64,000 bases of DNA from Tidjanibacter sp. (GCA_017396085.1 JAFQNC010000026.1:27843-91842), one strand, 5' to 3'; positions 32,155-50,329 are shown, counted from the stretch's first letter. Made by a program: numbers and translations. The notes: generated from the sequence alone by a model not told the origin.

Positions 32155-32754
32155 ATGGACAAGTCGCCACAAGAGATTAGTGCCGGCATAAGGGCCGGAG
32201 AAGAGTGGGCCTATCGTATGCTCTACGATGCCCACTACGAACTCTTGTGTCGCATTGCCTACGACTATGTCAAAGACACCTATCTGGCCGAAACAATCGT
32301 TGGCGACACCATTTTCCACATCTGGGAAAGGCGCGAAACACTCGACATACAAGGCCCCATAAGGCGTTATCTCATCAGGGCCGTGCGCAACCGTTGCTTG
32401 GACTTTCTCGCATCGCAGTATGTGCGCCGTACCATATCCGAGGGCGATGTGAACTCCTCCAACGAAGAGCATACCGACCTGCTTGACGGCGTGGAGGAAA
32501 TCAGCCCCCTTGGTATTCTGCTCGAAAGAGAGTTGGAAGACAAGGTGGTGGAAGCTGTGGAGCAGTTGCCCAAAGAGTGCCGAGCGGTGTTTGAGAAGAG
32601 CCGCTTTGAGGGGCTATCCTATCAGGAAATTGCCGATTCACTGGGCATTTCGGTCAATACCGTGAAATATCACATCAAGGCGGCTATCGCACGCATCTAC
32701 AACCACTTGGAGCGCTATCTGCTGGTGCTCGCCGTGGGTTGCATCTTTTTCTAA
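32155..32754 (+). CDS. ECF RNA polymerase sigma factor (Bacteroidetes PUL type)
   Basis: AETIVGDTIFHIWE, YLIRAVRNRCLD and SRFEGLSYQEIADSLGISVNTVKYHI; adjacent to FecR. Confidence 0.94.
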   Translation: MDKSPQEISAGIRAGEEWAYRMLYDAHYELLCRIAYDYVKDTYLAETIVGDTIFHIWERRETLDIQGPIRRYLIRAVRNRCLDFLASQYVRRTISEGDVNSSNEEHTDLLDGVEEISPLGILLERELEDKVVEAVEQLPKECRAVFEKSRFEGLSYQEIADSLGISVNTVKYHIKAAIARIYNHLERYLLVLAVGCIFF

Positions 32755-32774
32755 GAAAAAAACTCACTTTTTCA

Positions 32775-32806
32775 CTACCCTCCGAAGGAGGAATTTCGTC
32801 TAATAT
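32775..32806 (+). promoter_or_regulatory. Candidate ECF-dependent promoter for fecR
   Basis: CTACCCT-N16-GTCTAATAT; same layout as 34102-34133. Confidence 0.6.
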
Positions 32807-32830
32807 ATAAGACCGAGTCATTCACACACT

Positions 32831-33829
32831 ATGAACCTCTTTAATGACCAAATCGAAGGCCTCGTGGAGGCCTACCTGACAGACACCATCACTGCCGAAG
32901 AGTTGGCTGTGTTGAACACTTGGGTTTCAGCCAGCGCCGAGAACACTCAACTCTTTGAGCGCATTAGGGAGGTGTGGTTTTCAATGTCGGCAGCCAATCG
33001 CAACTTGGTTTTCGACTCCCACAAAGGCTATCAGAAATTCATCAAAAGGGTACACCGTGCACAGCGCAAGAGTTTGCGTAGCAAGGCGTTGCCCTTTGTT
33101 CGTTTGGCCACAGCAGCGGCTGCCGTGGTGGCACTCGTTGTGGTGGGCTACGTGGGTGGTCGCCACGAGGTGGAGTCCCGCTTTGAGCAGATTGTAACCG
33201 AGGCCCCGCTGGGAGCGACCTCGCAGGTGGTGCTGCCCGATGGCTCACAGGTGGTCCTCAATGCAGGCTCACGCATTGTCTACTCGCAAGGCTTCGGTGT
33301 GAACGACCGCAACATCAGCCTCTGTGGCGAAGGCTACTTTGAGGTGGCACGCAATGAGGATATGCCCTTTGTGGTGGAGAGCGACCATATGAGGGTGGAA
33401 GTGTTGGGCACCAAGTTCAATATGTGCGACTATGCCGAGGACCAAGAGGCTGCGGTGGCACTGGTGGAGGGCAAGGTAGACGTAACCAACCGTTACGACA
33501 ACATCCACGTGGAGATTACGCCCGACACACGTGCCGTCATTGACAACCGCACCCACTCTATGTCGGTGTCCAAAACCTCCGCCAGCGAAAACGTGCTTTG
33601 GCGTGAGGGCGTGCTCTACTTTGACGAGGAGCCTTTGGCCGACATCGCACGTGAGTTGGAGAGGTGCTACGGGGTGGACATTGCGATTGAGAACCCGCTG
33701 CTGAACGACTACAAGTTCTATGGCAAATTGCCCTCGCGACAACTCTCCATCGGGGAGGTGCTGGAGATTCTCTCCTCGGCAGGCGAGGTGGACTACTCCA
33801 TTGAGGGCCGACACATCACGCTCCTATAA
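32831..33829 (+). CDS. FecR-family anti-sigma factor
   Basis: TM helix; LPDGSQVVLNAGS, GEGYFEV, VLGTKFN and C-terminal DUF4974-like domain. Confidence 0.94.
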   Translation: MNLFNDQIEGLVEAYLTDTITAEELAVLNTWVSASAENTQLFERIREVWFSMSAANRNLVFDSHKGYQKFIKRVHRAQRKSLRSKALPFVRLATAAAAVVALVVVGYVGGRHEVESRFEQIVTEAPLGATSQVVLPDGSQVVLNAGSRIVYSQGFGVNDRNISLCGEGYFEVARNEDMPFVVESDHMRVEVLGTKFNMCDYAEDQEAAVALVEGKVDVTNRYDNIHVEITPDTRAVIDNRTHSMSVSKTSASENVLWREGVLYFDEEPLADIARELERCYGVDIAIENPLLNDYKFYGKLPSRQLSIGEVLEILSSAGEVDYSIEGRHITLL

Positions 33830-33983
33830 TCAAGTGCAGGAGCCATAACACAACAAGAGAACCTAAAGATTTATATTACAATCACAGCACTACAAAATCA
33901 ACCTAAAAAACGACATTGATAACCATACCTCAGAAAACGACAACTATTCGGAACTATTGTTAGTACCCTCATAGAGTTGGGAT

Positions 33984-34071
33984 AAAAAGAACCGAGGAAT
34001 CTCGCACATTCCCCGGTTCGCAAAAAAATCTCAACTCTATGCCCTTTGTACAGGTTTGCACAAGAAAAGAT
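33984..34071 (-). ncRNA. Predicted cis-antisense sRNA divergent from susC (boundaries approximate)
   Basis: Minus-strand -7 TATCTTTG (34077-34084); minus-strand terminator hairpin 33989-34019 followed by a U-run (33984-33988). Confidence 0.45.
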
Positions 34072-34101
34072 TTCCGCAAAGATAGGAAAAATTGCTTATT
34101 T

Positions 34102-34133
34102 CCACCCTATTGCAGAAGTCCAAAGTGCAATAT
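34102..34133 (+). promoter_or_regulatory. Candidate ECF-dependent promoter for susC
   Basis: CCACCCT-N16-GTGCAATAT. Confidence 0.6.
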
Positions 34134-34192
34134 TTATTAAGCAATTTAACTATTTCCGTCTATTAACACAAAATAATTCAATAAGTCAGTCT

Positions 34193-37100
34193 ATGAAAAG
34201 GAACTTAATTTTGCTCCTTTGGGCCCTGCTATTCACCATTGGGATGTCGGCCCAGAATAAACCCCTCTCGCTCAAACTTGATGGGGTGAGCGTGAAGAGC
34301 GCAATGGAAGCCCTCTCGGAGCAGAGTGGCTACACCTTCTTCTACAAGGTGGGCGAGGTGGACACCTCAAAGAGTGTCAGCATCAACGCCACCCGCATTG
34401 AGGAAGCCATCGGACAAATCTTGGCCGGTCAAAACGATGTGGCCTACGAAATTCAGGGCAACACTATCGTGGTGTCGAAAAAGGCCCCGCAGGCTCCAAA
34501 GAGCCAAAAGGCGCACGCATCCGGCGGTCAAGTGGAGGGTAATGTCTACGACAGTCAGAATAATCCTCTGGTGGGTGTGGTGGTGATGACCACCGATGGC
34601 GCCCACGCCGTAACCACCGACACCAAAGGCCACTTTGCCATCGCCGCCAAGAAGGACACCGTGTTGGAGTTTTCGTGTCTGGGCTATGCCACACGCACCG
34701 AAAAAGTCGGCACCCGCACCAATATGCGCATTGTGTTGGCCGATGACGTGCAGCAAATGGAGGCTGTGGTGGTTGTGGGCTATGGCACCCAAAAGAAGGT
34801 AAACCTCACCGGCTCGGTCTCTATGGTCAATAGTGAGGACCTCGAGGCGAGGCCTATCTCCAATGTGGCCAACGGTTTGCAGGGTATTCTCCCCGGCGTT
34901 ACCGTAACCAGCGCATCGGCACAGCCCGGTGAGTCCAACGCCACCATCAGGGTGAGGGGTGTGGGTACGCTCGGCAACTCCAACCCGTTGATTTTGATTG
35001 ATGGTGTGGAGGGCGACATCTCGGTCCTCAACCCCGAGGATATTGAGAGCGTGTCGGTGCTGAAGGATGCAGCCTCGGCCTCAATCTATGGTGCGAGGGG
35101 TGCAAATGGTGTGTTGCTCGTTACCACCAAAAAGCTCGGTAGTGGCGAGAAAATCCGCCCCTCGGTAACCTTCAACTCCTATGTGGGTGTGCAGACCCCC
35201 ACCCGATTGCCCGAAATGTGTGATGCCATTGAGTTTATGACCCTCGACAACGAGGCCCGTAGCAACATCGGCAACGCCATTGCGTGGCTTGACGATGCAT
35301 TCGACAAGGTGCGCACAGGCTCCGACCCCAACAACTTCGCCAACACCGACTGGCTCGGTGCGGTGCTGAAACCCAGCGCAATGCAGCAGAACTATGGTTT
35401 GAGCATCAATGGCAGTATGGGCGACAGCGGCTATATGCTCTCATACCGATTTTTCGACCAAGATGGTCTGACCGTGGGTAGCACCACAGGCGAGCAGAGG
35501 CACAACCTGCGCTACAAGATGGACACCAAGTTGCTCGACAAACTCACCCTTTCGTCAAACGTGGGCTATACCGCACGCAACATTGTGGCTCCCATCAACT
35601 CGCTCGTCAGTGGCGGTGGCGCAATCTACACCGCAATGCGTATCGCCCCCAACGCCCCCATCTACTACACCGATGGCACTTGGGCCTATGGTGGCGGTAA
35701 CACCAACCCCGTGGCCACCCTCACCGATGGCGGCTACAGCAAAACCTCGGCCGAAGAGGTGTCGGTGTTGGAGGTGCTCCGCTATGACATCAACAAGAGT
35801 TGGAATGTGAGCGCAACCTACAACCTCACATCCACCAACTCACTCCGTGATATACTCAAAAAGACCATCCGCTTCGTACACCCCGATTCGGGCCGAGTGG
35901 TGGAGGTAAACGCCCCCAATCAGGTGAAAAACATTGACGTGAGGGCACAGCAGCAGACCTTCATCTTGCAGAGCAACTTCGACTTCTCGGTGGGCAACCA
36001 CAACATCAGTGGCGTGGTGGGTATGTCGCAAGAGTGGTATGTGTATCGCTCCTTTGACGCCTCACGCAACAACCTCGTAACCGAATTCAACCCCACCATC
36101 AACCTCGGCGATGCCTCAACAATGAGCAACAACGCCTCGGCCAAACAGTGGGCCATTCGCTCCGGTTTCGGACGTTTGAGTTACAACTACGACGAGAGGT
36201 ACCTCTTTGAGATGAATATGCGCTACGACCTCTCCTCGCGTTTCCACCGCGACAATCGTGCGGGCTTGTTCCCCTCGTTTTCGGCAGGTTGGAGGGTGAG
36301 CGAAGAGGATTTTATGGCCTCCACCGAGGAGTGGCTCGACAACCTCAAATTGAGGGCTTCGTGGGGTAGGCTCGGCAACCAGTATGTTGGCTCGTCAAAC
36401 ACCCCCTACCTCTAACCTGACCGCCTACACCGATGACATCTCGCTCATCGGTGGCGGTGCCACCACGGGCTACACCCAATCGGTGCTCTCCAACCCCTTG
36501 CTCACTTGGGAAACCATCACGATGACCGATTTCGGCTTTGACCTCACAATGTTCAAAAACCGTTTCTCGCTCTCGTTTGACTGGTTCACCAAAGACACCG
36601 ATGGTATTCTGCTCAAACTCAACTACCCCGCACAGATTGGTGCAACCCCCTCCGAGGAGAACGCCGGCAAGATGAACAACACCGGTTGGGAGATTGATAT
36701 GGCTTGGAGGGACAAGGTTGGCGAAGTGCGCTACGGCTTTGGCTTCAACCTCTCGGATGTGAAGAACAAAATCACCGACTTGGCAGGCAACGCTCCCGAT
36801 TTGAGTGGCGACCAAGTGAGGGTTGTGGGCCTTCCCATTGACGCCTTCTATGGCTATGAGGCTATCGGTCTGATGACTCCCGAGGATTTCAAAATCTACG
36901 ACCCGAATACCGGTCAGGCTGCCCTGCCCAACATTCCCATTGTGTTGGGTAACGCCTACCAGCCCGGCGACATCAAATATAGGGACATCAGCGGCCCCAA
37001 TGGTAAACCCGATGGCCGCATCACCCCCGAGTATGACAAGAAGTACATCGGTAGCAACATCCCCCGCTACACCTACAGTTTCCGTGGCGATGTTGCGTGG

Positions 37101-37550
37101 AGAGGCTTCGACTTCAGTTTCAACCTCCAAGGTGTGGGTAAGTGTGATGGCTACCTCAAAGGCTCGGCACGCCACGCCTTGCAGGATATGGCCGCCTATC
37201 CACAAAAAGTACACTTGGAGCGTTACCACTACCTGAACAACCCCAATCCCAACACGACTTACCCTCGTTTGACCTACAACACCAAGTTTAATCAGGAGAC
37301 CTTCTCGACCTTCTGGTTGGAAGATGCCTCCTACCTCCGTTTGAAGAACATCCAGCTCGGCTACACCCTGCCCTCGGCCATCACCAAGAAGGCCAAAGTG
37401 GACAAGTGCCGCATCTACATCTCGGCCGACAACCTGCTGACCGTGAGCGATTTCTTCTACGCCTACGACCCCGAGACCCCCGTGTCGAGCGGTGGCTACT
37501 ACCCGCAAGTTAAGACCTGTGTGCTCGGTGTTAGCATCACCTTCCGATAG
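34193..37550 (+). pseudogene. susC: SusC-family TonB-dependent transducer (STN domain) split by a frameshift near 36402-36415
   Basis: N-part 34193-36415 (STN, plug, barrel to RASWGRLGNQYVGSSNTPYL-stop); the barrel continues in the +1 frame (SNLTAY...NPLLTWET...GVSITFR) to 37550. Confidence 0.8.
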
Positions 37551-37616
37551 AGGGAGCGACCCTACCATAGGACAACAACGTGTTGAACGAACAAACAAGA
37601 CAAAAGAGAGAGAGTT

Positions 37617-39308
37617 ATGAAAAAGATTATATACGGTTTTCTGATTGCCACAGCGGCACTGATGGTTGGTTGCAATGACGACTTTCTGGAGCGTCCGCAA
37701 TTTGACCAAATCACCGATGAGAACTTCTGGCAAAACGAGGCCCACCTCCAGAGTGTGGCCAACACCTTCACCACCTGTATGCAGGGTGCCTACTGGCTGA
37801 ACATCACAGAGATTATGGCCGACTTTGCACCTTGGGCCGTAACCACCGCCTTCCGCACCATCGGTGGCGGCAACTATGCCACCAACATCGGCAACCTCAA
37901 CTCCATCTGGGTGAGGGCCTACAATGGTATTGGCACCACCAACTACTTCCTCGCCAACTACAACAGGGCAGTCAATGTGAAGAAAGAAATCAGAGAACGC
38001 TATGCCGCCGAGGCATACTTCTACCGTGCCTACAACTATTGGATTCTGACCAACTACTTCGGCGATGTACCCTACATCACCGAGGTGCAAAACGTGGAGT
38101 CGCCCGATGTCTATCGTGGCAGGGACAAACGCGAGGTGGTGATTGACAACATCACCAAAGACCTCGAGGAGCACTACAAGGCTCTGCCTGAGTACATCCC
38201 CGCAGCAAGCACCGAGTTCGGCCGTGTGTCGCAAGCCGCTGCACTGGTGTTGCTCTCGCGCATCTACCTCTACAATGGTCGCTATGCCGATGCCGTAAAC
38301 GCCTGCGAGAGGGCGATGCAAAACCCCTACCACGAACTCTACACCACCGGCAAGCCCAATGAGGACTACTACAATCTGTTCACCTACACCGGACGTGCCT
38401 CACGTGTGGCAGCCAACAAGGAGACCATCCTCGCCTACGTCTACAACTACGACCTCGGCGAGAAGGCACGCACCTCCCACAACGTGTCGCGTTCCAACTG
38501 GGTACCGGGCGACTATGCTCGTTGGGTCCCCACAAAGAAGGCCATAGAACTCTACCTCACTGCCGATGGCCAGATTTGGGACCCCAAGCAGTGCAACTCC
38601 TATGAGGAGATTTTCCAAAACCGAGACCCCCGTATGTGTCAGACCATCCTCGCTCCCGGCACTCCTTGGACCGGAGGCCCCGATGGCGACATCACCAGCA
38701 CCGACAAGAGCATCTACCGCTACCCGCTGCTCATTAACGACAAGAGCGGTGCGATGACCTACACGGGCTACTATATGCGCAAGTATGTGGAGCCCTCCAC
38801 GGTGAAATATGTGAGCCACGATGACAACGACATCGTGATGATGCGCTACGCCGAGGTGCTTCTCAACTACGCCGAGGCCAAAGAGTTGGACGGCAAACTC
38901 ACCCAGCACGACCTCGACATCAGCATCAACCTCCTGCGTCAGAGGGTTGGTATGGTACCTATGGAACTCGGTAAGTTGCCCGCAGGCAGCGACATCCGCA
39001 CCGAGATTCGCCGTGAGCGCAACGTGGAACTCTTCTACGAAGGCCACCGCTACTTCGACATCATCCGTTGGAGAGAGGGCGAGACTTTGGGTGAGGACCT
39101 TGTGGGCGTAAACCGCAGGTGGCTCGACCAATCGAGGCTAAAAGTGGACCTGAGCACACTTGCGTGGGTTACCATTGATGGCGAGCAGTATCTGTTGTTG
39201 GAGACCGGTCGTACCTTCGACCCCAACAAGCACTACCTGCTCTCAATCCCCTTCGCCCAAATGCAACTAAACCCCAATCTGAAACCCAACAATCCGGGTT
39301 GGAACTAA
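37617..39308 (+). CDS. susD: SusD-family lipoprotein
   Basis: Lipobox LMVGC-NDDFLER; AEAYFYRAYNY, FGDVP, MRYAEVLLNYAEA and RRERNVELFYEGHRYFDIIRW. Confidence 0.96.
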   Translation: MKKIIYGFLIATAALMVGCNDDFLERPQFDQITDENFWQNEAHLQSVANTFTTCMQGAYWLNITEIMADFAPWAVTTAFRTIGGGNYATNIGNLNSIWVRAYNGIGTTNYFLANYNRAVNVKKEIRERYAAEAYFYRAYNYWILTNYFGDVPYITEVQNVESPDVYRGRDKREVVIDNITKDLEEHYKALPEYIPAASTEFGRVSQAAALVLLSRIYLYNGRYADAVNACERAMQNPYHELYTTGKPNEDYYNLFTYTGRASRVAANKETILAYVYNYDLGEKARTSHNVSRSNWVPGDYARWVPTKKAIELYLTADGQIWDPKQCNSYEEIFQNRDPRMCQTILAPGTPWTGGPDGDITSTDKSIYRYPLLINDKSGAMTYTGYYMRKYVEPSTVKYVSHDDNDIVMMRYAEVLLNYAEAKELDGKLTQHDLDISINLLRQRVGMVPMELGKLPAGSDIRTEIRRERNVELFYEGHRYFDIIRWREGETLGEDLVGVNRRWLDQSRLKVDLSTLAWVTIDGEQYLLLETGRTFDPNKHYLLSIPFAQMQLNPNLKPNNPGWN

Positions 39309-39324
39309 CAAGACCTTGACTTCT

Positions 39325-40152
39325 ATGATGAAAAACACACATAAGAAGATTGTGCTCACGTTGGGACTGGTGCTGTGTACGCTGCTGTGTGCATCGCAGC
39401 GTGTGCAAGCCCAAGAGGGAACAATAAGGCTCCGAGTGATGTCGATGAACATCAAAGAGGGAGGCCGGTATTGCGGTTTTCTCTCCGCTCCCTTTGCCGA
39501 GTTGATTAACCAGCACAAGCCCGATGTGGTGTGTTTGCAGGAGGTGGACCACCGCACCACTCGCAACGGAGGGCGTGATTGGTTACACGAGGTGGCAGCC
39601 GCCACGGGTATGATGCCCTATTTCTGTCAATCAATGACCTATCAGGGTGGCGGTTTCGGCACGGCACTATTGTGTCGCTACCCCTTCCACCGACTGACCA
39701 AGATTATCACCACGCTCGAAGGCGCACGAGAGCCGAGGTCCACGGGGTGGCTCTACTTTGCCCTGCCCGAGGGTGGCATTGTGAGGGTGGCCTCCACCCA
39801 CCTTGCGCTGGAGAGTTCGCAGATGACCATTCGCCACTTGGCCGATGTAAACTCCAAACTCTTTGCCGAGGACGAGAGCACTCCCACACTCCTCGTGGGC
39901 GACTTCAATGCCGCCGAGGGTAGCGACCCCATCTCCTATGCGGCCAATCGTTGGGTGGACCTCGGCAGGGGCTACGGCAACACCTACCCTTCCAGCCGTG
40001 AGGACATCACCTATGCTCCGTGTAGGCTCGACTACGTGATGGCCTACCCCAAGACGGGGTGGAGTGTGGTGAGTTATGAGATACTCGACTGCCCCGAACT
40101 CTCCGACCACTGCTTCATCGTGGCCGAGCTGACCTACACACCTAATAACTAA
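39325..40152 (+). CDS. Secreted endonuclease/exonuclease/phosphatase (EEP) family phosphoesterase
   Basis: Signal peptide; intact SMN, LQEVD, STHL, GDFN, LDYV and SDH motifs. Confidence 0.9.
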   Translation: MMKNTHKKIVLTLGLVLCTLLCASQRVQAQEGTIRLRVMSMNIKEGGRYCGFLSAPFAELINQHKPDVVCLQEVDHRTTRNGGRDWLHEVAAATGMMPYFCQSMTYQGGGFGTALLCRYPFHRLTKIITTLEGAREPRSTGWLYFALPEGGIVRVASTHLALESSQMTIRHLADVNSKLFAEDESTPTLLVGDFNAAEGSDPISYAANRWVDLGRGYGNTYPSSREDITYAPCRLDYVMAYPKTGWSVVSYEILDCPELSDHCFIVAELTYTPNN

Positions 40153-40174: not shown

Positions 40175-41005
40175 ATGACAACACGCACAACAATACAGTT
40201 TCTTTGCAGAGTGTGGCCAATGTTACTGCTCGTGGCATTGGCCACCGCCTGCGGTCCCACTCCCGACAATGGGGGCGGTGGCGGAGGTAACGAAAATGGT
40301 GGTGGCGACTATGTTGCTCCCGAGGTGCCCGAAACGCCCGTGGCAACCAACCTCTTCCGTGTGGACTACTTCACCACGTTGGAGAGCGAGGGTGGTTATT
40401 TTGTGGGCAGAGATGCGGGTGTGGCCTCGCAGTTCATCTCCACTCAGGAGGCCCCGCGCTCGGTGGTCTATATGTTTGACCGATGCGACTTCACGGTAGG
40501 TAGCAAGCAGCCCGCAGTGCAGATGGCACTCGACAACAAAGCCTTCTGCTACTTCCTCCAAACGGGCCCCACCGAGGAGCAGACCACCCGTGGCACCGCC
40601 GCAGTGAGTCGCTATCAGACCTCCTTTGTGGTGGGTGTCTACGAAGAGGGCCTGCACCTGTCGGGCGTAACATTCAACGTGGGCCTCTCCAAACCCACCG
40701 CAATCACCCTCTACACGGCTCGCTTCGACACCACCGAGCAGGTGGCCAAGGCTGTGGAGCACTTTGGGGTGGATTGGCAGAACAATGGTGTGCTCGTGGG
40801 CTCGGTGGCCGTGGAGCAGAAGGAGGCCATAGAGAAGTGGTTGGCGGCCAACTTTGAGGGCTATCGTGTGGCCTTTGCAGGCAGCGAGGGTACCCCCTAC
40901 GATGTGGTGGTACTCTGTCCGGCCCTGATGGTGTGTCGCTCCATTGAGCCACTCAAGACCATCAACCTCACCTATTGGAAAGTAACGATGGAAAAATTTT
41001 TCTAA
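40175..41005 (+). CDS. Lipoprotein, probable catalytically inactive EEP-fold protein
   Basis: Lipobox LATAC; by-eye colinear similarity to the flanking EEPs, with all catalytic residues replaced. Confidence 0.6.
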   Translation: MTTRTTIQFLCRVWPMLLLVALATACGPTPDNGGGGGGNENGGGDYVAPEVPETPVATNLFRVDYFTTLESEGGYFVGRDAGVASQFISTQEAPRSVVYMFDRCDFTVGSKQPAVQMALDNKAFCYFLQTGPTEEQTTRGTAAVSRYQTSFVVGVYEEGLHLSGVTFNVGLSKPTAITLYTARFDTTEQVAKAVEHFGVDWQNNGVLVGSVAVEQKEAIEKWLAANFEGYRVAFAGSEGTPYDVVVLCPALMVCRSIEPLKTINLTYWKVTMEKFF

Positions 41006-41020
41006 CCCGAAAGATAACCT

Positions 41021-41788
41021 ATGAAGAGAACTTTTTTGATACTTGTGGCGGTGCTGGCCGTGAGCCTTGCGGGCTCGGCGAGCGAGCCACTCAAGATTTT
41101 GAGTTACAACCTCCGCTTCGGCGAACTCGCCACCGTGGAGCAGTTGGGCGACTTTGTGGCCTCACAGCAAGCCGACTTTGTGGCCTTGCAGGAGTGTGAT
41201 TGGGCCACCAAGAGGGATAGGGCCCCACACCAACACGGAGTGAAGTTCGTCAGCGAGATTGCCCACAGGGCCGGTATGTTCGGGCTCTATGGCAAGGCCA
41301 TCAACTACAAGGGTGGCTACTACGGTGTGGGCATACTGAGCCGCTACCCCATCATCAAGAGCGAGCGAGTGTTGCTGCCCCACAGGCCCAAAACCGAGCA
41401 GCGCACACTGCTTGTGGCCACCGCCGAACTCCCCGATGGCCAGCTGCTCACCTTTGTGAGTACCCACTTGGAGGTCTCTTCCAGTGAGGCACGTCAGGAG
41501 CAGGTGGAGTTCATCAACCGCTACTTTGCCGAGTGGCCCCACGCTGTTATTTTGGTGGGCGATATGAATGCCGAGCCCCACACCAAGGAGATGCGCTCGC
41601 TGGTGGAAGCAGGGTGGCAGAATATGACCAACGAGGAGAAAACCTACAGTTCCACCAACCCCACAATCAAGATTGACTACATCTTCTACCGTGGTCCCCG
41701 CAAGGCCGAATTGCGCCACACGGAGGTGGTGAAATGGTGTACCCTCTCGGACCACTTCCCCGTGGTTTCGACCATCGCAATGGAGTAA
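41021..41788 (+). CDS. Secreted EEP-family phosphoesterase
   Basis: Signal peptide; SYN, LQECD, STHL, GDMN, IDYI and SDH motifs. Confidence 0.9.
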   Translation: MKRTFLILVAVLAVSLAGSASEPLKILSYNLRFGELATVEQLGDFVASQQADFVALQECDWATKRDRAPHQHGVKFVSEIAHRAGMFGLYGKAINYKGGYYGVGILSRYPIIKSERVLLPHRPKTEQRTLLVATAELPDGQLLTFVSTHLEVSSSEARQEQVEFINRYFAEWPHAVILVGDMNAEPHTKEMRSLVEAGWQNMTNEEKTYSSTNPTIKIDYIFYRGPRKAELRHTEVVKWCTLSDHFPVVSTIAME

Positions 41789-41882: not shown

Positions 41883-43211
41883 ATGAAAAAAACATTATTT
41901 GCAATTGCAATGCTGGCAGTAGCACTGGTAGCTTGCGAGAAAGGTCCCGGCGAAGGCGCAGAAAAACTCGATGCAACCATCGCTTTGGCAGAGGGTGTTG
42001 AGGCCACTTTGGCCGAGGGTGTAGCCTATGGTAGCCCCCTTGCCATCAAAGGTACCGTAACCACCACCGCACCCCTCACCGAGGTTGTGCTGACCGGTGT
42101 AGCCAAAAATGGCAACGCCTATGCCGCCAAAGGTAGCGCACAGACTCTCGAGCAGGATGGTAACGAGGTGGACGTGCTGTGGTTTGCCGACACCAAAGAG
42201 GCAACCCACTTGGAGGTTAAACTCGTAGCCGGCAACAAGGCTGCTTCTTTCTACTACGCACTTGGCGCAGTTGAGGGCGAGTTGGCCGGTAGTGCTTGGG
42301 CAATGAGTACTGTTGCTCTCTACGCCGACAACAAAGTTGCTCACAACGTAAATGACAATGTTACTTATCCCGAAGAGAACACCGGTGCAGGTAGCGACAC
42401 CAAATCGTTCTTCTCGATGCACGGTGTTGAAATCAATGGTAAGGTTGAGCACATTCTCTCGCTCAACGAACTCTTGACTGTTGATGGCAAAAATGCTTCG
42501 ATGTGCTGGGTAAACTGCTTGGAGAAAACCGATGCTCTGCCCAAAGAGGGTAAAGAGGGTTTGGACGCTCTCACTTTCATTGGTGGCCAAAGGGGTTACA
42601 TGTTCACCGGTATGAAGAAGACTTCCTTGGGTGGTGGTACCACAGGTCGTCAGTGCGACACTCAGAAGTATGGTGAGCACCAGATTGTTGATGCAAACAT
42701 TGACGTAAACTTCACCTTCAAAGCCATCAACGGCTCGTGGATTGGTGAGAAATACAAAGACGAGGAATACAAATTCATCGATGCAATCTGGCTCAGCATC
42801 AACGACGAACTCACCACCGAAGCCGACAAGATGAGGGCATTCTACCAGTTGAGCAAGATTCAGCAGAAACTTGACAACGCCACTCTCGGTGTTGAGGAAG
42901 AGCCTACCAGCCTTGGTGGTAAGACCTATCTGCGTCGTTGGACAAACGCTGGTCAGACATCCGCAACTGCTCCTACCGAGGGTTTCCGTGCAGGCGACTA
43001 CATCATCATCCGTAGCGAGCGCACCGTAGGCGAGAACACTGTTTACTACTATGGTCTTATTCAGGTTCTTCAACTCGTTGACGATAGCCAGATGTTTACC
43101 TTGCCATCTACCAAGGGTGATTGGATGTGCATTGAACATAGTGCCGCCTATGAGCTCTTTATGAAGCCCAACTACTTCGCTGTTAAATCGCAGATGGAGA
43201 TTGCCAAATAA
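41883..43211 (+). CDS. Surface lipoprotein of unknown function (putative glycan-binding protein)
   Basis: Lipobox LVAC-EK; no family recognised; last gene before a terminator. Confidence 0.75.
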   Translation: MKKTLFAIAMLAVALVACEKGPGEGAEKLDATIALAEGVEATLAEGVAYGSPLAIKGTVTTTAPLTEVVLTGVAKNGNAYAAKGSAQTLEQDGNEVDVLWFADTKEATHLEVKLVAGNKAASFYYALGAVEGELAGSAWAMSTVALYADNKVAHNVNDNVTYPEENTGAGSDTKSFFSMHGVEINGKVEHILSLNELLTVDGKNASMCWVNCLEKTDALPKEGKEGLDALTFIGGQRGYMFTGMKKTSLGGGTTGRQCDTQKYGEHQIVDANIDVNFTFKAINGSWIGEKYKDEEYKFIDAIWLSINDELTTEADKMRAFYQLSKIQQKLDNATLGVEEEPTSLGGKTYLRRWTNAGQTSATAPTEGFRAGDYIIIRSERTVGENTVYYYGLIQVLQLVDDSQMFTLPSTKGDWMCIEHSAAYELFMKPNYFAVKSQMEIAK

Positions 43212-43231
43212 GCAAACCCTAAAACAAACAA

Positions 43232-43281
43232 TTGCCGATGCGGGGAAATTCTATGTGTGGCCCCGCATCGGCAACTTTTTC
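43232..43281 (+). terminator. Intrinsic terminator after the PUL lipoprotein
   Basis: TTGCCGATGCGGGG...CCCCGCATCGGCAA followed by CTTTTTT. Confidence 0.8.
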
Positions 43282-43326
43282 TCAACCACACACACAAGAC
43301 CAACACACTAAAAACAACAACAAATA

Positions 43327-45492
43327 ATGATGAAACTGCTGCAACGATTTTGGATATTTATGGTGGTGTGTGCCACCTTGGTAGGATGTAGTGCCCAACA
43401 GAAGGAGCGCACCCAACAGATTGCTGCGGCACGTGGGGTGATTGAGCGCACACTCGGCGCAGAGCCACAAAACCTCACACTCAAACTTACCGCCCCCACA
43501 GCAGAGGGGCTGGATACCTACAACATCTCGGCCACGGGCGGACACCTCACCATAGAGGGCTCCTCGCCCACGGCTTTGTGCTACGCTTTCAACCACTATC
43601 TCCACCGCGCCTGCCACTCGCAGGTGGTCTGGGGCGGCAAGCACCTGTGTGTGCCCACCGAGTGGCCCGACTACAGCGAAAGCGGCACCTCGCCCTATGA
43701 GTTGCGCTACTTCCTGAACGTGTGCACCTTTGGCTACACCGCCCCCTACTGGGATTGGGAGCGTTGGGAGCAGGAACTCGACTGGATGGCTCTCCACGGA
43801 GTGAACTTCCCCTTGGCAAGCGTGGCCAGCGAGGCCATCGCAAGGCGTGTGTGGGTGCGACTCGGACTCACCCCCGAGGAGGCCGATGCCTTCTTCACGG
43901 GCGCAGCACACCTGCCTTGGCACCGTATGGGCAACCTCAACTCCTTTGACGGCCCCCTCACCGAGGAGTGGCACGAAGGACAAATAGAACTCCAGCACAA
44001 AATACTCGCCCGTATGCGAGAACTCGGTATGAACCCCGTGGCCCCTGCCTTTGCGGGTTTTGTGCCCCCAACATTCATTGAGAAAAACCCCGACATCACC
44101 TACAACCAACTCCTCTGGGGCGGCTTCGACAAGTCGTTCAACGCAGTGGTGTTGGCCCCCAACTCTCCTTGGTTCAGCAAGATTGGACAGCTCTTTGTGG
44201 AGGAGTGGGAGGCCGAGTTTGGGGATGCAACATACTACCTCTCCGATAGTTTCAACGAGATGCGCTTGCCCGTGGAGCCCGGCGACACCGAGGGTAAGCA
44301 CGCCCTGTTGGCCGACTATGGCGAGGCCATCTACAACTCCATCATCGCCGGCGACCCCGATGCCGTGTGGGTAACCCAAGGCTGGACTTTCGGCTACCAG
44401 CACGACTTCTGGGACAAGGAGAGTATGCAGGCCCTGTTGAGCCGTGTACCCGATGATAGGATGATTATCATCGACCTCGGTTGCGACTACCCCAAGTGGG
44501 TGTGGAAAACCGAGCAGACGTGGAAGGTACAAGAGGGTTTCTACGGCAAAAAGTGGATATTCAGCTATGTGCCCAACTTCGGTGGCAAGGTGTTGCCCAC
44601 GGGCGAACTCCAAATGTATGCCACCTCTTCGGCCGAGGCTCTCGCTTCGCCCGCCAAGGGCAACCTCGTAGGTTTCGGCTCGGCCCCCGAGGGCTTGGAG
44701 AACAACGAGGTAGTCTATGAGTTGTTGGCCGATATGGGCTGGACCTCCGAGGCCATCGACCTTGACGAGTGGGTGGAGAACTACTGCACCGCACGCTACG
44801 GAGCCTACAACGAAAACATCAAGGCCGCTTGGGATGCCTTCCGTGGGAGTGTCTACTCCTCGCTCTACTCCTATCCGAGGTTTACGTGGCAGACCGTGGT
44901 GCCCGACCAGCGCCGCAAGAGTGCCCACGACATCAACGACCTCTTTGGCGAGGGTGTTGTACACCTGCTGGCCGCAGCCGAGGAGTGTGGAGGCTCGCCC
45001 CTCTATGTGAACGATGTGGTGGAGATGAGCGCAATGTGGCTCTCCGAGGTGGCCGACCGACACTACGAAAAGGCCCTCTCGCTCAAAGCACGTGGCCACA
45101 AGCGTGCCGCAAAGGCCGAACTCACACAAACCATCGAAATACTCCGCGGTGTAGACGCCCTGTTGGCCCACCACCCCAACCACAGGCTTGAAAATTGGGT
45201 AACCTTGGCCCGCAAGTCGGCCGAGAGTGTGGAGGCCCAAAATGCTGCCGAGGCCAACGCCAAGAGGCTGATTGCAACTTGGGGCGGTTGGCAGGAGGAC
45301 TATGCTGCAAGGCTGTGGAGCGATATGGTGGCCCGCTACTACATCCCTCGTCTGGAAATCTACTTTGCCCACGGAGCCGCCGCCACCGACAAGTGGGAAG
45401 AGGAGTGGATTGGCACCCCGATGACGGAGTTTGCCACCGCAGAGGGCAACCCCGTGGAGCTGGCAAAAAGCCTCGTGGAGCACTATAAGTAG
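43327..45492 (+). CDS. GH89 alpha-N-acetylglucosaminidase (lipoprotein)
   Basis: RYFLNVCTFGY, WERWEQELDWMALHGVN, WHRMGN, DSFNEM and PEGLENN motifs. Confidence 0.95.
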   Translation: MMKLLQRFWIFMVVCATLVGCSAQQKERTQQIAAARGVIERTLGAEPQNLTLKLTAPTAEGLDTYNISATGGHLTIEGSSPTALCYAFNHYLHRACHSQVVWGGKHLCVPTEWPDYSESGTSPYELRYFLNVCTFGYTAPYWDWERWEQELDWMALHGVNFPLASVASEAIARRVWVRLGLTPEEADAFFTGAAHLPWHRMGNLNSFDGPLTEEWHEGQIELQHKILARMRELGMNPVAPAFAGFVPPTFIEKNPDITYNQLLWGGFDKSFNAVVLAPNSPWFSKIGQLFVEEWEAEFGDATYYLSDSFNEMRLPVEPGDTEGKHALLADYGEAIYNSIIAGDPDAVWVTQGWTFGYQHDFWDKESMQALLSRVPDDRMIIIDLGCDYPKWVWKTEQTWKVQEGFYGKKWIFSYVPNFGGKVLPTGELQMYATSSAEALASPAKGNLVGFGSAPEGLENNEVVYELLADMGWTSEAIDLDEWVENYCTARYGAYNENIKAAWDAFRGSVYSSLYSYPRFTWQTVVPDQRRKSAHDINDLFGEGVVHLLAAAEECGGSPLYVNDVVEMSAMWLSEVADRHYEKALSLKARGHKRAAKAELTQTIEILRGVDALLAHHPNHRLENWVTLARKSAESVEAQNAAEANAKRLIATWGGWQEDYAARLWSDMVARYYIPRLEIYFAHGAAATDKWEEEWIGTPMTEFATAEGNPVELAKSLVEHYK

Positions 45493-45534
45493 CGCACGCC
45501 CAGACAAACGAACAAAAAAAACGAACAAACAGAT

Positions 45535-47823
45535 ATGACTCAAACCGCAAAAAGCCTATTCCGATTGTTGTGGGTGTGGGTGGGAGCACTCCTTGTTGGG
45601 TGCGCCCCCGATGCCACCCAAACCACCTTCTCGCTCCGTGAGCAGACCGAGGCTGCCGAAGCACTCGTGGAACGTGTAACCGATGGCCGTGCCGATGATT
45701 TCAGGGTGGTAATTACCCAAAAGCAGGTCGATGGCAAAGACTACTTCGCCCTCTATGCCGACCCTCAGCAGCAGGGTGTGGTGGTGCTCGAGGGTAGCGA
45801 TGGAGTGTGTGTGGCAAGTGCGCTCAACCACTACCTGCAAGAGTGGTGCGGTTGCCACATCAGTTGGTGTGGCTCCAGCGTGGAGTTGCCCGAAAGGCTC
45901 CCCCTGCCGCAAGGTAAAACCATCAAAACAAGCCCCTACAAGTATCGCTACTGCTTCAACTACTGCACCTTCAACTACACTATGAGTTGGTGGGACAAGG
46001 AGCGTTGGCAGTGGGAAATTGACTTTATGGCACTCAACGGCATCAATATGCCCCTTGCCGTAACGGGCCAAAACTCCGTGTGGCAGCGGGTCTATCGGTC
46101 GCTCGGCTTCACGGACAAAGAGTTGGAGGGCTTCTTCAGCGGCCCCGCCTACTTCAACTGGTTTTGGATGGGCAATCTGGACGGTTGGGGCGGTCCGCTG
46201 CCGCAGAGTTTCTTCCGCAAGCACGAGGCACTCCAAAAATACATCCTCCGCAGCGAGCGAGCACTCGGTATGAAGCCCGTGTTGCCCGCCTTCACAGGCC
46301 ACGTACCGCCCTCGTTTGAGCAGAAGTTCCCCGATGTGAGGGTACGCAAGACCTCGTGGGTGAACTTCCCCGAGGTTGCTGTGCTGGACCCCGAGGAGGA
46401 GATGTTCGACCGCATTGGCGAGATGTTCATCAGGGAGCAAGCCGCACTCTATGGCACCAACCACCTCTACTCGGCCGACACCTTCAACGAAAATGACCCC
46501 CCAAGCACCGACTCGGCCTACTTGGCAGGTATGAGTCGCAAGGTGTTTGAGTCGATGAGGGCTGCCGACAGCGAGGCCGTGTGGGTGATGCAGGGGTGGC
46601 TGTTCCACCACTCCGATGACTTCTGGGGCGAGCCCGAAATAAAAGCCCTGCTGGGTGCGGTGCCCGATGATGGTATGATTATTCTCGACCTTTGGAGCGA
46701 GCGTTTCCCCGTATGGCAGCGCACCGAAGCCTACTATGGCAAACCTTGGATATGGTGTATGTTGCACAACTTCGGCCAAAACATAACCCTCTCCGGCAAC
46801 TCCGCACGTGTAGCACAAGGCCCCGCAAGCGCACTCGCCTCGCCCAAGTCGGGCAAGATGTGTGGCATTGGACTCACTCCCGAGGGCATTGAACACAACC
46901 CGATGATGTTCGCTATGATGTTGGAAAACGTGTGGCGAGAGGAGCCCATAGAGGTGGGCGACTTTGTGGCCGACTATCTGGAGGAGAGGTATGGCAGTCG
47001 CAACGAGCAGGCCGAGCAAGCGTGGGGCATCATCGCCGAGAGTGTCTACAACAACGATGTGAGCAACGGAGGCCCCGAGTCCATCATCACCGGCAGGCCC
47101 AACTTCAAGATGAACCCCGGAGGCACCACCAACGTCAAACTCCACTACGACCAAATGGAGTTGGCCACAGCGTGGGACCTGCTGATGGAGTGTGCCGAGG
47201 AGTTTGAGGAGAGCGAGGGCTACCGCTACGACCTTGTGGACATCACTCGTCAGGTGATGGCCAACCACGCCACCGTGTTGCAACAAGCGTGTGCCGAGGC
47301 CTACAAAAGTGGCGACATTGAGGCCTTCGATGGCGCAGCAAACCAATTTATTTCCTATCTTTGGGACTTTGAAGAACTACTCTCCTCACGAGAGGAGTTG
47401 TTGCTCGGCAGGTGGCTGGAAGCAGCCAAAGCGATGGGTACCAACGCCGCCGAGCGAGGCCTCTATGAGCAAAACGCCCGCAACCTGCTCACCACTTGGG
47501 GCAACAAGGATTGCCGCATCAGGGACTATGCCTGCCGTCAGTGGTCGGGAATGGTCGGCGGGTTCTACATCCCCCGCTGGGAGCGATTCTTCGCAAGCGT
47601 GCGTGAGGCTATGAGCAAGGGAGTGGAGTTTGACCAAAAACTCTTTGACGAGCAGAGCAAAGAGTGGGAATGGGAGTGGACCTTCGGCAAGGAGTGCTAC
47701 CCCACCACTCCACAGACCGATGAGATTGAGGTGGCACGCAAAATGCACTCCAAATATAGAAGCCAGTTGGAGCCCTTGCCCTATGTGGTCGCTCCCTCGG
47801 CCAAGAAGATTATTGAGAGTTAG
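45535..47823 (+). CDS. Second GH89 alpha-N-acetylglucosaminidase (lipoprotein)
   Basis: RYCFNYCTFNY, WEIDFMALNGIN, WFWMGNL, DTFNE, HNFGQN, PEGIEHN and DYACRQWSG motifs. Confidence 0.95.
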   Translation: MTQTAKSLFRLLWVWVGALLVGCAPDATQTTFSLREQTEAAEALVERVTDGRADDFRVVITQKQVDGKDYFALYADPQQQGVVVLEGSDGVCVASALNHYLQEWCGCHISWCGSSVELPERLPLPQGKTIKTSPYKYRYCFNYCTFNYTMSWWDKERWQWEIDFMALNGINMPLAVTGQNSVWQRVYRSLGFTDKELEGFFSGPAYFNWFWMGNLDGWGGPLPQSFFRKHEALQKYILRSERALGMKPVLPAFTGHVPPSFEQKFPDVRVRKTSWVNFPEVAVLDPEEEMFDRIGEMFIREQAALYGTNHLYSADTFNENDPPSTDSAYLAGMSRKVFESMRAADSEAVWVMQGWLFHHSDDFWGEPEIKALLGAVPDDGMIILDLWSERFPVWQRTEAYYGKPWIWCMLHNFGQNITLSGNSARVAQGPASALASPKSGKMCGIGLTPEGIEHNPMMFAMMLENVWREEPIEVGDFVADYLEERYGSRNEQAEQAWGIIAESVYNNDVSNGGPESIITGRPNFKMNPGGTTNVKLHYDQMELATAWDLLMECAEEFEESEGYRYDLVDITRQVMANHATVLQQACAEAYKSGDIEAFDGAANQFISYLWDFEELLSSREELLLGRWLEAAKAMGTNAAERGLYEQNARNLLTTWGNKDCRIRDYACRQWSGMVGGFYIPRWERFFASVREAMSKGVEFDQKLFDEQSKEWEWEWTFGKECYPTTPQTDEIEVARKMHSKYRSQLEPLPYVVAPSAKKIIES

Positions 47824-47859
47824 GAACATAGGTTTTTACAGCCACCGACACACAAAAGT

Positions 47860-49020
47860 ATGAAAAAGATAACCATAGCAGTGGACTCCTTCAAGGGCTC
47901 CCTCTCCTCCGCAGAGGTGGCCGAGGCAGTGGCGCAGGGCATAGAGGCCGTGTTGCCCCATTGCGAAGTGTGCAAGGTGAGCATAGCCGATGGTGGCGAA
48001 GGCACAGCCGAAGCACTCGTGGAGAGCCTCGGTGGGGAGTGGGTGCAGATGGTGGCCGGCGACCCTTTGGGCAGGCCCATTGGGGTGCGCTATGGAGTGA
48101 TTGAGGAGGGGCGATGTGCCGTGGTGGAGATGGCCACAGCAAGCGGACTTCCCCTGCTCACTCCCGAGGAGCGCAACCCACTGCTCACCTCCACCATTGG
48201 CACCGGAGAGATGATTGCCAACGCCATAGGGCGAGGGTGTCGCAAGTTCCTCGTGGCCATTGGCGGAAGTGCCACCAACGACTGCGGAATGGGTATGCTC
48301 CACGCCTTAGGCTACCGCTTTGTGGATGCTCAGGGCGAGGTCCTACAACCTTGTGGTGAGGCCTTGGTGCAAATTGACCACATTGACGACACTCTTGTAA
48401 GCCCTCTGCTCCGAGAGTGTGAGTTTGTGGTGGCCTGCGATGTTACCAACCCACTCTATGGACCCAACGGAGCCGCCCACATCTTTGCACCCCAAAAGGG
48501 AGCAACCCCACAGATGGTGGAGCAGTTGGACCTCGGACTGCGCAACTTTGCACGCACCGTGAGGGCCTACAACGGCTGCGAGGTGGACTTCGTGGAGGGC
48601 GCAGGAGCCGCCGGAGGACTCGGTGCAGGCTTCGTGGGAGTGTTGGATGCCAAGTTGCAGAGGGGCATTGATATGGTTATGGAGGCGTTGCACTTTGAGG
48701 AAAGGCTCCTCGGTAGCGACCTCGTCATCACCGGCGAGGGGTGCATCGACTACCAGACCGTGATGGGCAAAGCCCCCAGCGGAGTGTTGCACGCCGCCAC
48801 CCGTCAGGGAATTCCCGTGGTGGCCATTGGCGGAGGTGTGAGGTGGTGTGAGGCCCTCGAAAAAAGTGGGTTTGCCGTCATCGTTGCCGCCACCCCCGAG
48901 GGTGTGGAGTTGCAGGAGGCTATGCGCCCCGAAGTGGCAAAAAGGAACGTGAGGCTCGCCACCGAGCGCATAGTGGAGCAGTGGGTGGCCACACGCACAC
49001 AAAGAAAAGTAGAACAATAA
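47860..49020 (+). CDS. glxK: Glycerate kinase (GlxK/GarK family)
   Basis: DSFKGSL, ADGGEGT, EMATASGL, GGSATND, GAAGGLG and TGEG motifs. Confidence 0.96.
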   Translation: MKKITIAVDSFKGSLSSAEVAEAVAQGIEAVLPHCEVCKVSIADGGEGTAEALVESLGGEWVQMVAGDPLGRPIGVRYGVIEEGRCAVVEMATASGLPLLTPEERNPLLTSTIGTGEMIANAIGRGCRKFLVAIGGSATNDCGMGMLHALGYRFVDAQGEVLQPCGEALVQIDHIDDTLVSPLLRECEFVVACDVTNPLYGPNGAAHIFAPQKGATPQMVEQLDLGLRNFARTVRAYNGCEVDFVEGAGAAGGLGAGFVGVLDAKLQRGIDMVMEALHFEERLLGSDLVITGEGCIDYQTVMGKAPSGVLHAATRQGIPVVAIGGGVRWCEALEKSGFAVIVAATPEGVELQEAMRPEVAKRNVRLATERIVEQWVATRTQRKVEQ

Positions 49021-49069
49021 ACAGCGAGGGGACTCACCCCTCTTTCCGACCTAACATTATTTTCGGTTT

Positions 49070-50329
49070 ATGATGATGAGTGCTATTGGAGCATTGGTGG
49101 GCTTGGTGTTGTCCATCGTGCTGATTGTGCGCAAACTATCGCCCGTCTACAGCCTTTTGTTGGGCGCACTTGTGGGCGGTCTGCTTGGCGGACTCGGCAT
49201 TGAGGCCACCGCCACCACAATGGTGAGCGGAGTGAAAGACATCACCCCCGCCATAGTGCGTATTTTGGCCGCAGGTGTGCTCTCGGGTGTGCTAATCAAG
49301 AGTGGCGCCGCCGAGAGCATATCTCACACTATTGTGGAAAAACTCGGCCGCAAGCAGGTCTACCTCGCACTGGCCCTCTCGGTGATGTTGCTCACCGCCG
49401 TGGGCGTGTTCGTTGATGTGGCCGTAATCACCGTGGCCCCCGTGGCCATAATGATTGGGCGCAAGTTGGGAGCCTCAAGGTTCAAGATTTTGCTCGCAAT
49501 GATTGGTGGCGGCAAGTGTGGCAACATCATCTCGCCCAACCCCAACACCATCATCGCAGCCGAAAATATGGAAGCACCGCTCTCCTCGGTGATGTTCGCA
49601 GGCCTCGTGCCCGCCATCATCGGACTCCTCGTTACGGTCTACGTCATCATCCCCCTGATGCCCAACAGCGACCTCTACACCCCCACCTCGGACAAGGAAG
49701 AGGATGGCAGCGGAACAAAGGCACTCCCCTCATTTTGGGCCAGCGTGGCAGGTCCTCTGGTTGCCATCGCACTGCTCGCCCTGCGACCCCTTGCAGGGGT
49801 AGCGATTGACCCTCTGGTGGCTCTACCCGTGGGCGGAATTGTGGGCATTGCAACCACCCGCACGTGGAACAAGGCCGGCGAGAGCATAAGTTTCGGATTG
49901 GAGAAGATGTCGGTGGTGGCGGTGTTGCTCGTGGGCACGGGTGCCATAGCCGGCATAATCAAGGCCTCCTCGCTCACCGACCTGCTCATCGGAGTGATGG
50001 GCAGTGGCGAGGGCGGCAGGGTGTTGCTGGCTCCGCTGGCAGGTGCGATAATGTCGGCCGCCACAGCCTCAACTACCGCAGGAGCCACCGTGGCTTCGGC
50101 CTCCTTTGGACAGACCATTCTCGCCGCAGGCATACCGGCAGTGTGGGGCGCAGCAATGATAAATGCAGGTGCCACGGTGCTGGACCACCTGCCCCACGGC
50201 TCGTTCTTCCACGCCACCGGCGGCTCGGTGGAGATGAGCATAAAACAACGCCTGCGCCTTATCCCCTACGAATCGCTCGTGGGCCTTGTGCTGGCCACCT
50301 GTTCCACCCTCGCATACCTCTTGAGTTGA
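49070..50329 (+). CDS. GntP-family sugar-acid permease (probable glycerate importer)
   Basis: Multi-TM protein with GGGKCGNIISPNPNTI and DHLPHGSFFHATGG; directly downstream of glxK. Confidence 0.85.
   Translation: MMMSAIGALVGLVLSIVLIVRKLSPVYSLLLGALVGGLLGGLGIEATATTMVSGVKDITPAIVRILAAGVLSGVLIKSGAAESISHTIVEKLGRKQVYLALALSVMLLTAVGVFVDVAVITVAPVAIMIGRKLGASRFKILLAMIGGGKCGNIISPNPNTIIAAENMEAPLSSVMFAGLVPAIIGLLVTVYVIIPLMPNSDLYTPTSDKEEDGSGTKALPSFWASVAGPLVAIALLALRPLAGVAIDPLVALPVGGIVGIATTRTWNKAGESISFGLEKMSVVAVLLVGTGAIAGIIKASSLTDLLIGVMGSGEGGRVLLAPLAGAIMSAATASTTAGATVASASFGQTILAAGIPAVWGAAMINAGATVLDHLPHGSFFHATGGSVEMSIKQRLRLIPYESLVGLVLATCSTLAYLLS

Follow-up and report, generated by a model that had tools for sequence, protein, structure and literature searches.

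A conserved GH89, phosphoesterase and glycerate kinase locus of Bacteroidales as a candidate polysaccharide utilization locus for type V lipoteichoic acid

Gene content of the locus

This study concerns a run of 12 genes at positions 32155-50329 of a 64,000-nucleotide stretch of DNA from Tidjanibacter sp. (GCA_017396085.1 JAFQNC010000026.1:27843-91842; the whole stretch is called the window), which we analyzed as a candidate polysaccharide utilization locus (PUL) for type V lipoteichoic acid (LTA), the polymer also called PS-III in Clostridioides difficile. The genes were called from open reading frames (ORFs) and from Pfam and NCBIfam matches, and all of them lie on the + strand (Table 1). 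The genes are separated by 7-115 bp, and a search inside the run found no convincing terminator on the + strand. The run is flanked upstream by an SDH_alpha-family gene and downstream by cysS on the opposite strand. The host genome belongs to the Bacteroidales, has a size of 2.0 Mb and is 95% complete. Adjacent SusC and SusD genes, co-oriented GH89 and EEP enzymes and a dedicated ECF/FecR regulator identify the run as a Sus-like PUL, in which the Pfam search detected no sulfatase, lyase or further recognisable glycosidase. The original prediction, made from the sequence of the window, had described a co-oriented ECF/FecR pair, SusC/D, two EEP phosphoesterases, two GH89 enzymes, a glycerate kinase and a GntP permease. 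Each of these genes was found where it had been placed and on the + strand, but two lipoproteins without Pfam matches, of 276 and 442 aa, had been overlooked. The run is a conserved and coherent unit.

Table 1. Features of the candidate locus, in positions of the window.
Feature	Position	Strand	Domains and remarks
ECF-type sigma factor	32155-32754	+	Sigma70_r2, Sigma70_r4_2, Sigma70_ECF; heads the cassette in relatives too
FecR-type anti-sigma factor	32831-33829	+	FecR, FecR_C
SusC-like TonB-dependent transporter with STN signalling domain	34194-37550	+	STN, CarboxypepD_reg, Plug; ORFs 34046-36415 and 36384-37550
SusD-like lipoprotein	37617-39308	+	SusD_RagB, SusD-like_3; 61-99% identity in relatives
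EEP1 secreted phosphoesterase	39316-40152	+	PF03372, 82 bits; probable start ATG 39325
276-aa lipoprotein, predicted EEP fold, catalytic residues absent	40175-41005	+	no Pfam match
EEP2 secreted phosphoesterase	41021-41788	+	PF03372, 72 bits
Orphan 442-aa lipoprotein	41883-43211	+	no Pfam or NCBIfam match
GH89a alpha-N-acetylglucosaminidase lipoprotein	43327-45492	+	NAGLU_N, NAGLU, NAGLU_C
GH89b alpha-N-acetylglucosaminidase lipoprotein	45535-47823	+	NAGLU_N, NAGLU, NAGLU_C
Class I glycerate kinase (GlxK)	47860-49020	+	PF02595, 458 bits; TIGR00045, 433 bits (cut-off 168)
Divergent GntP-like permease (IT superfamily)	49070-50329	+	PF02447, 84 bits
42-nt direct repeat bracketing the cassette	left copy 32090-32131; right copy 50447-50488		

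Both EEPs had been predicted to be intact and secreted, and both retain the full set of catalytic and metal-binding residues. These are N45, E76, H162, D196, N198, D239, S263, D264 and H265 in EEP1, invariant in 19 orthologues, and N30, E58, H149, D181, N183, D219, S243, D244 and H245 in EEP2, invariant in 17. The two proteins score above the PF03372 cut-off, carry ordinary signal peptides (type I in EEP1) and share ~25% identity with each other. Their assignment to a characterised EEP subfamily was attempted and rejected, the matches being weak and at superfamily level only.

The 276-aa lipoprotein carries a lipobox cysteine (Cys26) followed by a G/N-rich linker. Its family matches the EEP1 family with an hhalign probability of 94.5% (E 8e-8), and the top Foldseek matches of its AlphaFold2 (AF2) model, which has a mean predicted local distance difference test score (pLDDT) of 87, all have the EEP fold (3TEB, TDP2, LINE-1 EN and DNase I). 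The catalytic motifs of EEPs are missing from the 20-sequence alignment of the family. Sequence and model together indicate a pseudo-enzyme with an EEP fold. We regard this protein as a candidate surface protein binding a phosphodiester glycan, a role that would come naturally to a dead phosphodiesterase that is lipidated and tethered by a linker. The presence of three EEP-fold proteins, one of them a surface pseudo-enzyme, points to a phosphodiester substrate.

The two predicted GH89 alpha-N-acetylglucosaminidases were found with intact catalytic motifs: besides the three NAGLU domains, both paralogues contain the FNE motif with the acid/base Glu, the PEG motif with the nucleophile Glu and an LVGC lipobox. 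They share ~32% identity, and GH89b scores 586 bits against human NAGLU (4XWH) and 412 bits against the C. perfringens GH89. Related loci that have GH89 always keep both of these anciently diverged paralogues. A third intact GH89 of 744 aa is encoded outside any PUL (G000:C3:74667-76900, equivalent to L019:12668-14902, - strand), adjoining a gene of the SASA family (sialate O-acetylesterase-like), and has orthologues in the congeners G004 and G010. From its sequence and position, this orphan enzyme could serve host glycans.

The 442-aa lipoprotein comprises an N-terminal Ig-like sandwich and a C-terminal domain in which the motifs ENTGAGSDT and GRQCD are invariant. The AF2 model reaches a moderate pLDDT of 69 overall, with residues 30-146 modelled confidently, and Foldseek returned Ig-like domains only, with no match for the remainder. 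The family is tiny, with ~12 full-length clusters at 50% identity among 1.84 billion representatives; a member is found in every related locus, and the family appears to be confined to this locus type. Compared with its counterpart in the conspecific L049 genome (L049:10001-11257), the protein is ~90% identical in the Ig-like domain and ~40% identical in the C-terminal domain, with an overall identity of 56%; the other genes of the locus show 90-100% identity between the same two genomes. With the motifs kept, the divergence of the C-terminal domain, which would be exposed at the surface, resembles the outcome of allelic replacement or of diversifying selection. A relationship to the 491-499-aa proteins of Paludibacter loci was considered and no link was found.

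With regard to SusC, the start codon is the ATG at 34194, where a signal peptide is present. The gene is split by a 2-bp deletion near 36412, where the window reads CCTCT--AACC and every relative compared (the conspecific L049 as well as L048, L050, L037 and L086) reads CCTCTCGAACC; SusC of the relatives is a single gene encoding 1115-1136 aa. Through this frameshift the locus may be inactive in this genome, unless the frameshift is an assembly error.

The 42-nt direct repeat that brackets the cassette was considered as an attachment site, and this was ruled out because the repeat belongs to a genome-wide family of the 9-nt unit TTAAGGGCY. Intergenic arrays of this unit, often ending AAAAAAGACGTT, occur on most contigs, at more than 100 sites in the genome. 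The repeat regions at the locus edges (32090-32134 and 50438-50491) contain the genome's only perfect 42-mers.

Conservation of the cassette and its glycerate module

The original prediction had proposed that relatives be searched for a conserved arrangement of two GH89 genes, EEP, glxK and gntP. The relatives of the window genome are labelled Candidatus Cryptobacteroides or "Tidjanibacter", and in five of the 24 congeners the gene order from SusC to GntP is identical, down to ~55% identity (SusC, SusD, EEP1, pseudo-EEP, EEP2, 442-aa lipoprotein, GH89a, GH89b, GlxK, GntP). One genome per species was then scanned with an alignment of the 442-aa protein, which returned 49 loci in other species representatives, and the proposed synteny was found in the five congeners and in loci of these 49 species. 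The carriers include metagenome-assembled genomes (MAGs) from ruminant, human, mouse and chicken gut, among them Cryptobacteroides/"Tidjanibacter", Alistipes, Rikenellaceae, Muribaculaceae and 'Bacteroides' UMGS933, as well as the non-gut carriers Paludibacter, Paludibacteraceae and "Porphyromonadaceae sp. NP-X", which come from digesters, biofilms and bioreactors. The core FecR-SusC-SusD-EEP1-dead EEP-EEP2-442-aa lipoprotein is present in essentially all 49 loci. At least three flanking contexts were observed, namely SDH_alpha/cysS in the window, GHMP kinase/alpha-amylase in L037 and GT4/acyl-ACP thioesterase in L039, and the glxK-gntP pair accompanies the cassette in all three. The gene arrangement is far beyond chance.

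GlxK is the only class I glycerate kinase of the window genome and is encoded 36 bp downstream of GH89b. Its class I assignment follows from its PF02595 and TIGR00045 scores, and the equivalog models for 2-kinases and 3-kinases score below their cut-offs. The permease exceeds the PF02447 cut-off of 22.5 bits and scores 85 bits against TIGR00791, far below the cut-off of 293; it also matches CitMHS and Na_H_antiport_2. This divergent permease of the IT superfamily, putatively of the GntP family, is predicted to be a glycerate importer. Apart from G015, all genomes of the genus that have the window-type GntP also carry the locus, and congeners without the locus have their glycerate kinase sited elsewhere with no permease beside it.

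For 36 loci the sequence downstream of the 442-aa gene extends for at least 6.9 kb, and the glycerate module was counted in these. In 33 of them a glycerate kinase is accompanied by a GntP-family permease: 25 have a class I kinase with the window-type permease, located downstream of the GH89 genes, and eight have a class II kinase; one shorter locus is also of class II, which gives nine class II loci in all. The locus of "Porphyromonadaceae sp. NP-X", L079, is of class II. The co-occurrence of glxK-gntP with the GH89 and EEP genes in relatives, which the original prediction had set as a test of itself, is therefore strongly borne out. The three remaining loci, which lack a kinase, stand singly at scattered places within class I clades of the SusD tree. 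In the class II loci, a canonical GntP (287-305 bits) is followed after a gap of 3-4 bp by a DUF4147/MOFRL protein, which matches the MOFRL-type glycerate kinases 2B8N and 1X3L with 317-319 bits and is named glycerate kinase by NCBI and IMG. The class I (PF02595) and class II glycerate kinases are unrelated in sequence and fold, and the class II loci form a single Paludibacter-type clade in the SusD tree, with a support of 100/100. The replacement of the kinase by a non-homologous class II enzyme indicates that selection preserved the function through the change of genes. The permease-kinase pair of L077, L078 and L074 has the 442-aa gene on one side and other genes of the locus on the other, and it therefore cannot be dismissed as an adjoining housekeeping operon. 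That glycerate would be a real product of the substrate, rather than the target of a hitchhiker function, is well supported by this comparison of loci.

Several variants of the locus were observed. In L042:10473-14762, GH89a and GH89b are apparently fused in a 1429-aa ORF and glxK is absent; L058 has an additional copy of GH89a between gntP and glxK, and SusD and EEP1 are duplicated in L081/G011. Some Paludibacter-type loci, which have no GH89, encode a 471-aa GFO/IDH/MocA oxidoreductase in its place, which, judging from its family, may deglycosylate by an oxidative route; membership of GH109 was considered, and its PDB matches include no GH109 structure. Paludibacter-type loci (L077:13959-18001; L079:18556-20055) add a third EEP and a protein of 491-499 aa, which has beta-helix-like NxGGA repeats and a C-terminal tail of the type IX secretion system (T9SS) type, and which has no Pfam or PDB match.

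The substrate and its alternatives

The published repeat of the C. difficile PS-III/LTA, ->P-6)-a-GlcNAc-(1-3)-a-GlcNAc-[1-2-GroA]-(6-> (PMC13558421, PMC10642750), is the one that the original prediction had given. Each repeat contains two distinct bonds of alpha-N-acetylglucosamine (alpha-GlcNAc), one 6-P-6 diester and one glycerate. The conserved enzymes of the locus, for their part, indicate a substrate with phosphodiester or phosphomonoester groups, two kinds of alpha-GlcNAc bond and glycerate, and nothing else. PS-III matches this enzyme set with none left over.

The conserved gene set makes it highly probable that the substrate contains alpha-GlcNAc, phosphoester and glycerate, and this part of the original prediction is well supported. 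Its two further elements, the identity of the substrate as type V LTA and the assignment of one enzyme to each bond, are arguments from chemical fit. On that fit type V LTA is the best available identification, and we give it an even chance of being correct. With regard to the locus as a whole, the balance tips slightly in favor of a PUL under sigma/anti-sigma control for a bacterial cell-envelope phosphoglycan of alpha-linked GlcNAc, phosphodiester bridges and glyceric acid; among known polymers, only the type V LTA of C. difficile and its relatives in the Peptostreptococcaceae has this composition.

In the proposed pathway, for which we infer the cellular location and the order of steps, as well as the substrate itself, from the observed gene content and motifs, the conserved cassette and the linkage to glycerate kinase, released polymer would be captured at the cell surface by SusD, the dead EEP lipoprotein and the 442-aa lipoprotein and imported via SusC. 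In the periplasm, one EEP would cleave the 6-P-6 diester and the other would strip the remaining 6-phosphate. The two GH89 enzymes would split the two alpha-GlcNAc bonds, one to GlcNAc O3 and one to glycerate O2. Free glycerate would enter through the GntP-like permease and would be converted by the glycerate kinase into phosphoglycerate, which would feed into glycolysis.

Several observations weigh against type V LTA as the substrate. No obvious surface endo-acting enzyme was identified in the window locus, and the locus encodes no enzyme for the triglucosyl-diacylglycerol anchor or for the glucosamine (GlcN) residues that occur in 15-30% or more of the repeats; the original prediction had anticipated that the anchor and the de-N-acetylated residues would need enzymes from outside the window, and none is present in it. 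A search of the 95%-complete genome (G000) for nagA (TIGR00221) did not find this gene; two NagB-like genes were found, at C27:78010 (a 672-aa ORF) and C5:118630. The EEPs do not group with the BT3783-type sugar-6-phosphatase subfamily, and neither 3MPR nor 4C1R was listed at E <= 0.01 for EEP1 or EEP2 in single-sequence and profile searches of the PDB. With regard to glycerate, the exchange of kinase class is, on the SusD tree, one replacement event, not several, and a single-copy glycerate kinase is present in 23 of the 24 congeners, whether they carry the locus or not. In G015, the glxK-gntP pair adjoins serine dehydratase and peptidase genes with no PUL, which means that the pair can serve other purposes and suggests a self-contained glycerate module that was recruited to the locus. 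The ECF/anti-sigma PULs of Bacteroides thetaiotaomicron are typically host-glycan loci. Finally, a Ser-type formylglycine (FGly) sulfatase, which has an SSTPAR motif and scores 604 bits against PDB 7OZ8, is encoded in ~10 related loci, and we know of no LTA that is sulfated.

Some of these observations favor a different reading, in which the locus would act on host glycans such as heparan sulfate fragments or gastric-type mucin, the EEPs would have another role, and glxK-gntP would be linked neighbours. The type of regulation, the glycerate kinase that is core in the genus, the PUL-free pair of G015 and the sulfatase of some relatives, whose characterised relative acts on 3-sulfated GlcNAc, are all in line with it, as is the close similarity of GH89b to human NAGLU. 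Heparan sulfate or mucin would, however, need lyases, GH88 and other glycosidases, and no lyase, GH88, galactosidase, fucosidase or sialidase is encoded in any of the ~50 loci, which makes host glycans a poor fit. The marks of heparin/heparan sulfate loci (PL12/13/15, GH88 and glycosaminoglycan sulfatases) are likewise missing from the window and the 49 loci, save for the accessory sulfatase, which has no orthologue in the window genome. The interchange of two kinase classes within the locus, the operon-internal position of the pair in L077-type loci and the co-occurrence of the window-type permease with the locus argue against mere neighbours, and the predicted EEP-fold binding protein is dedicated and conserved across the family. 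Furthermore, free-living Paludibacter carries the locus, and the separate orphan GH89 of the genome could cover host glycans. A host-glycan locus is therefore considered improbable.

The sulfatase also qualifies the original statement that there is no sulfatase, which is true for the window and untrue for the family. Its carriers, Alistipes among others, are the loci L052, L053-L055, L059, L062, L069, L073, L088 and L089, in which the gene (SSTPARAGLLTG motif) is inserted at varying positions. By sequence, the accessory sulfatase appears to be related to 7OZ8, a member of the S1_46 structure set, about as closely as an orthologue. The 7OZ8 entry accompanied a paper in which S1_46 structures and the GlcNAc-3-sulfatase BT1918 were described for the first time, and the S1_46 tree of that paper includes a phosphonate monoester hydrolase/phosphodiesterase group. 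The accessory enzyme could reflect a sulfated variant of the substrate or could be a third phosphoesterase.

Substrate variants are also central to a third reading, in which the chemistry is that proposed here and the source is another one: an alpha-GlcNAc/phosphate/glycerate glycan, perhaps undescribed and sulfated in some hosts, for example in the capsule or a wall polymer of other Firmicutes, Actinobacteria or environmental bacteria. Such variants are suggested by the changing accessory genes (the S1_46-like sulfatase, the third EEP, the T9SS beta-helix protein and the GFO/IDH/MocA oxidoreductase in place of GH89), and the locus occurs in Paludibacter MAGs of bioreactors, biofilms and digesters besides gut taxa. 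Searches of the literature for other GlcNAc-glycerate polymers gave papers on C. difficile only, which indicates that little is known of them. Nevertheless, no second polymer of this composition was found in the searched literature, and we are aware of no other that combines alpha-GlcNAc, phosphoester and glycerate. PS-III accounts for each conserved enzyme without surplus, and Peptostreptococcaceae live in digesters as well as in animal guts. Another source for the glycan is thus rather unlikely, though clearly more plausible than a host glycan.

Relation to known systems and significance

The closest precedent for the type V LTA pathway proposed here is found in the yeast alpha-mannan PULs of B. 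thetaiotaomicron, which contain the EEP-fold phosphatases BT3783 and BT2630 (Cuskin et al. 2015, PMC4978465). BT3783 provides a precedent for an EEP-fold sugar phosphatase inside a PUL, and in those SusC/D systems, as proposed here, periplasmic EEP-fold enzymes dephosphorylate a phosphoglycan of a microbial wall and exo-glycosidases finish the degradation (PMC4978465). The glycosidases are different, with GH89 in the present locus and GH38, GH76, GH92 and GH99 in the mannan PULs, and the present locus contains two EEPs with a dead EEP lipoprotein as well as the glycerate kinase/permease module. EEP1 and EEP2 are related to BT3783 at superfamily level only, so the likeness appears to be one of fold and role. 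The substrate would be Gram-positive bacterial here, and it is fungal there.

GH89/NAGLU is shared with the heparin/heparan sulfate PUL of B. thetaiotaomicron and with the lysosomal NAGLU/SGSH route, and some relatives of the present locus share a sulfatase with them as well. In contrast to these systems, the locus lacks PL12/13/15 and GH88, has no sulfatase in the window, and contains phosphoesterases and glycerate genes.

In Escherichia coli, mannosylglycerate is utilised by MngAB and a glycerate kinase, as a small solute that is taken up by the phosphotransferase system (PTS) and degraded in the cytoplasm. Both there and in the prediction made here, a glycosidase frees glycerate, which is then the substrate of a glycerate kinase; the present locus would differ in the import of a polymer across the outer membrane, in the phosphodiester, and in the sugar and the enzyme families. 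The GlpQ and PhoD proteins of Bacillus are glycerophosphodiesterases with which the cell recovers phosphate from its own poly(glycerol phosphate). Teichoic-acid phosphodiesters are a nutrient source for them, as we propose for the present locus, whereas their fold is different, they act without SusC/D, and they make no use of the carbon of the sugar or the glycerate.

In gut Firmicutes, teichoic acids count among the most abundant polymers. In the literature searched, no Bacteroidota locus consuming a teichoic acid was described, and a full-text search returned no paper that joins GH89, SusD or PULs with teichoic acid or glycerate. We therefore tentatively propose, at somewhat less than even confidence, that gut and environmental Bacteroidales have a dedicated, horizontally mobile PUL for the LTA of Peptostreptococcaceae, which would be the first PUL for a teichoic acid, would provide the first non-host substrate of GH89, including a GlcNAc-glycerate bond, and would introduce the dead EEPs as a new class of surface phosphoglycan binders.

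The comparison of loci yields one result that holds by itself: a single locus type has exchanged one glycerate kinase family for another, unrelated one. If the proposal on LTA is true, the locus would be the first system known to consume a teichoic acid, GH89 would be extended beyond host glycans, and two orphan protein families would gain a function. PS-III/LTA, which C. difficile strains have in conserved form, is under development as a vaccine antigen. Its degradation by commensals would bear on cross-feeding on dead Gram-positive cells and on what becomes of an immunostimulatory molecule in the gut, and the enzymes would provide tools for cutting PS-III into defined fragments.

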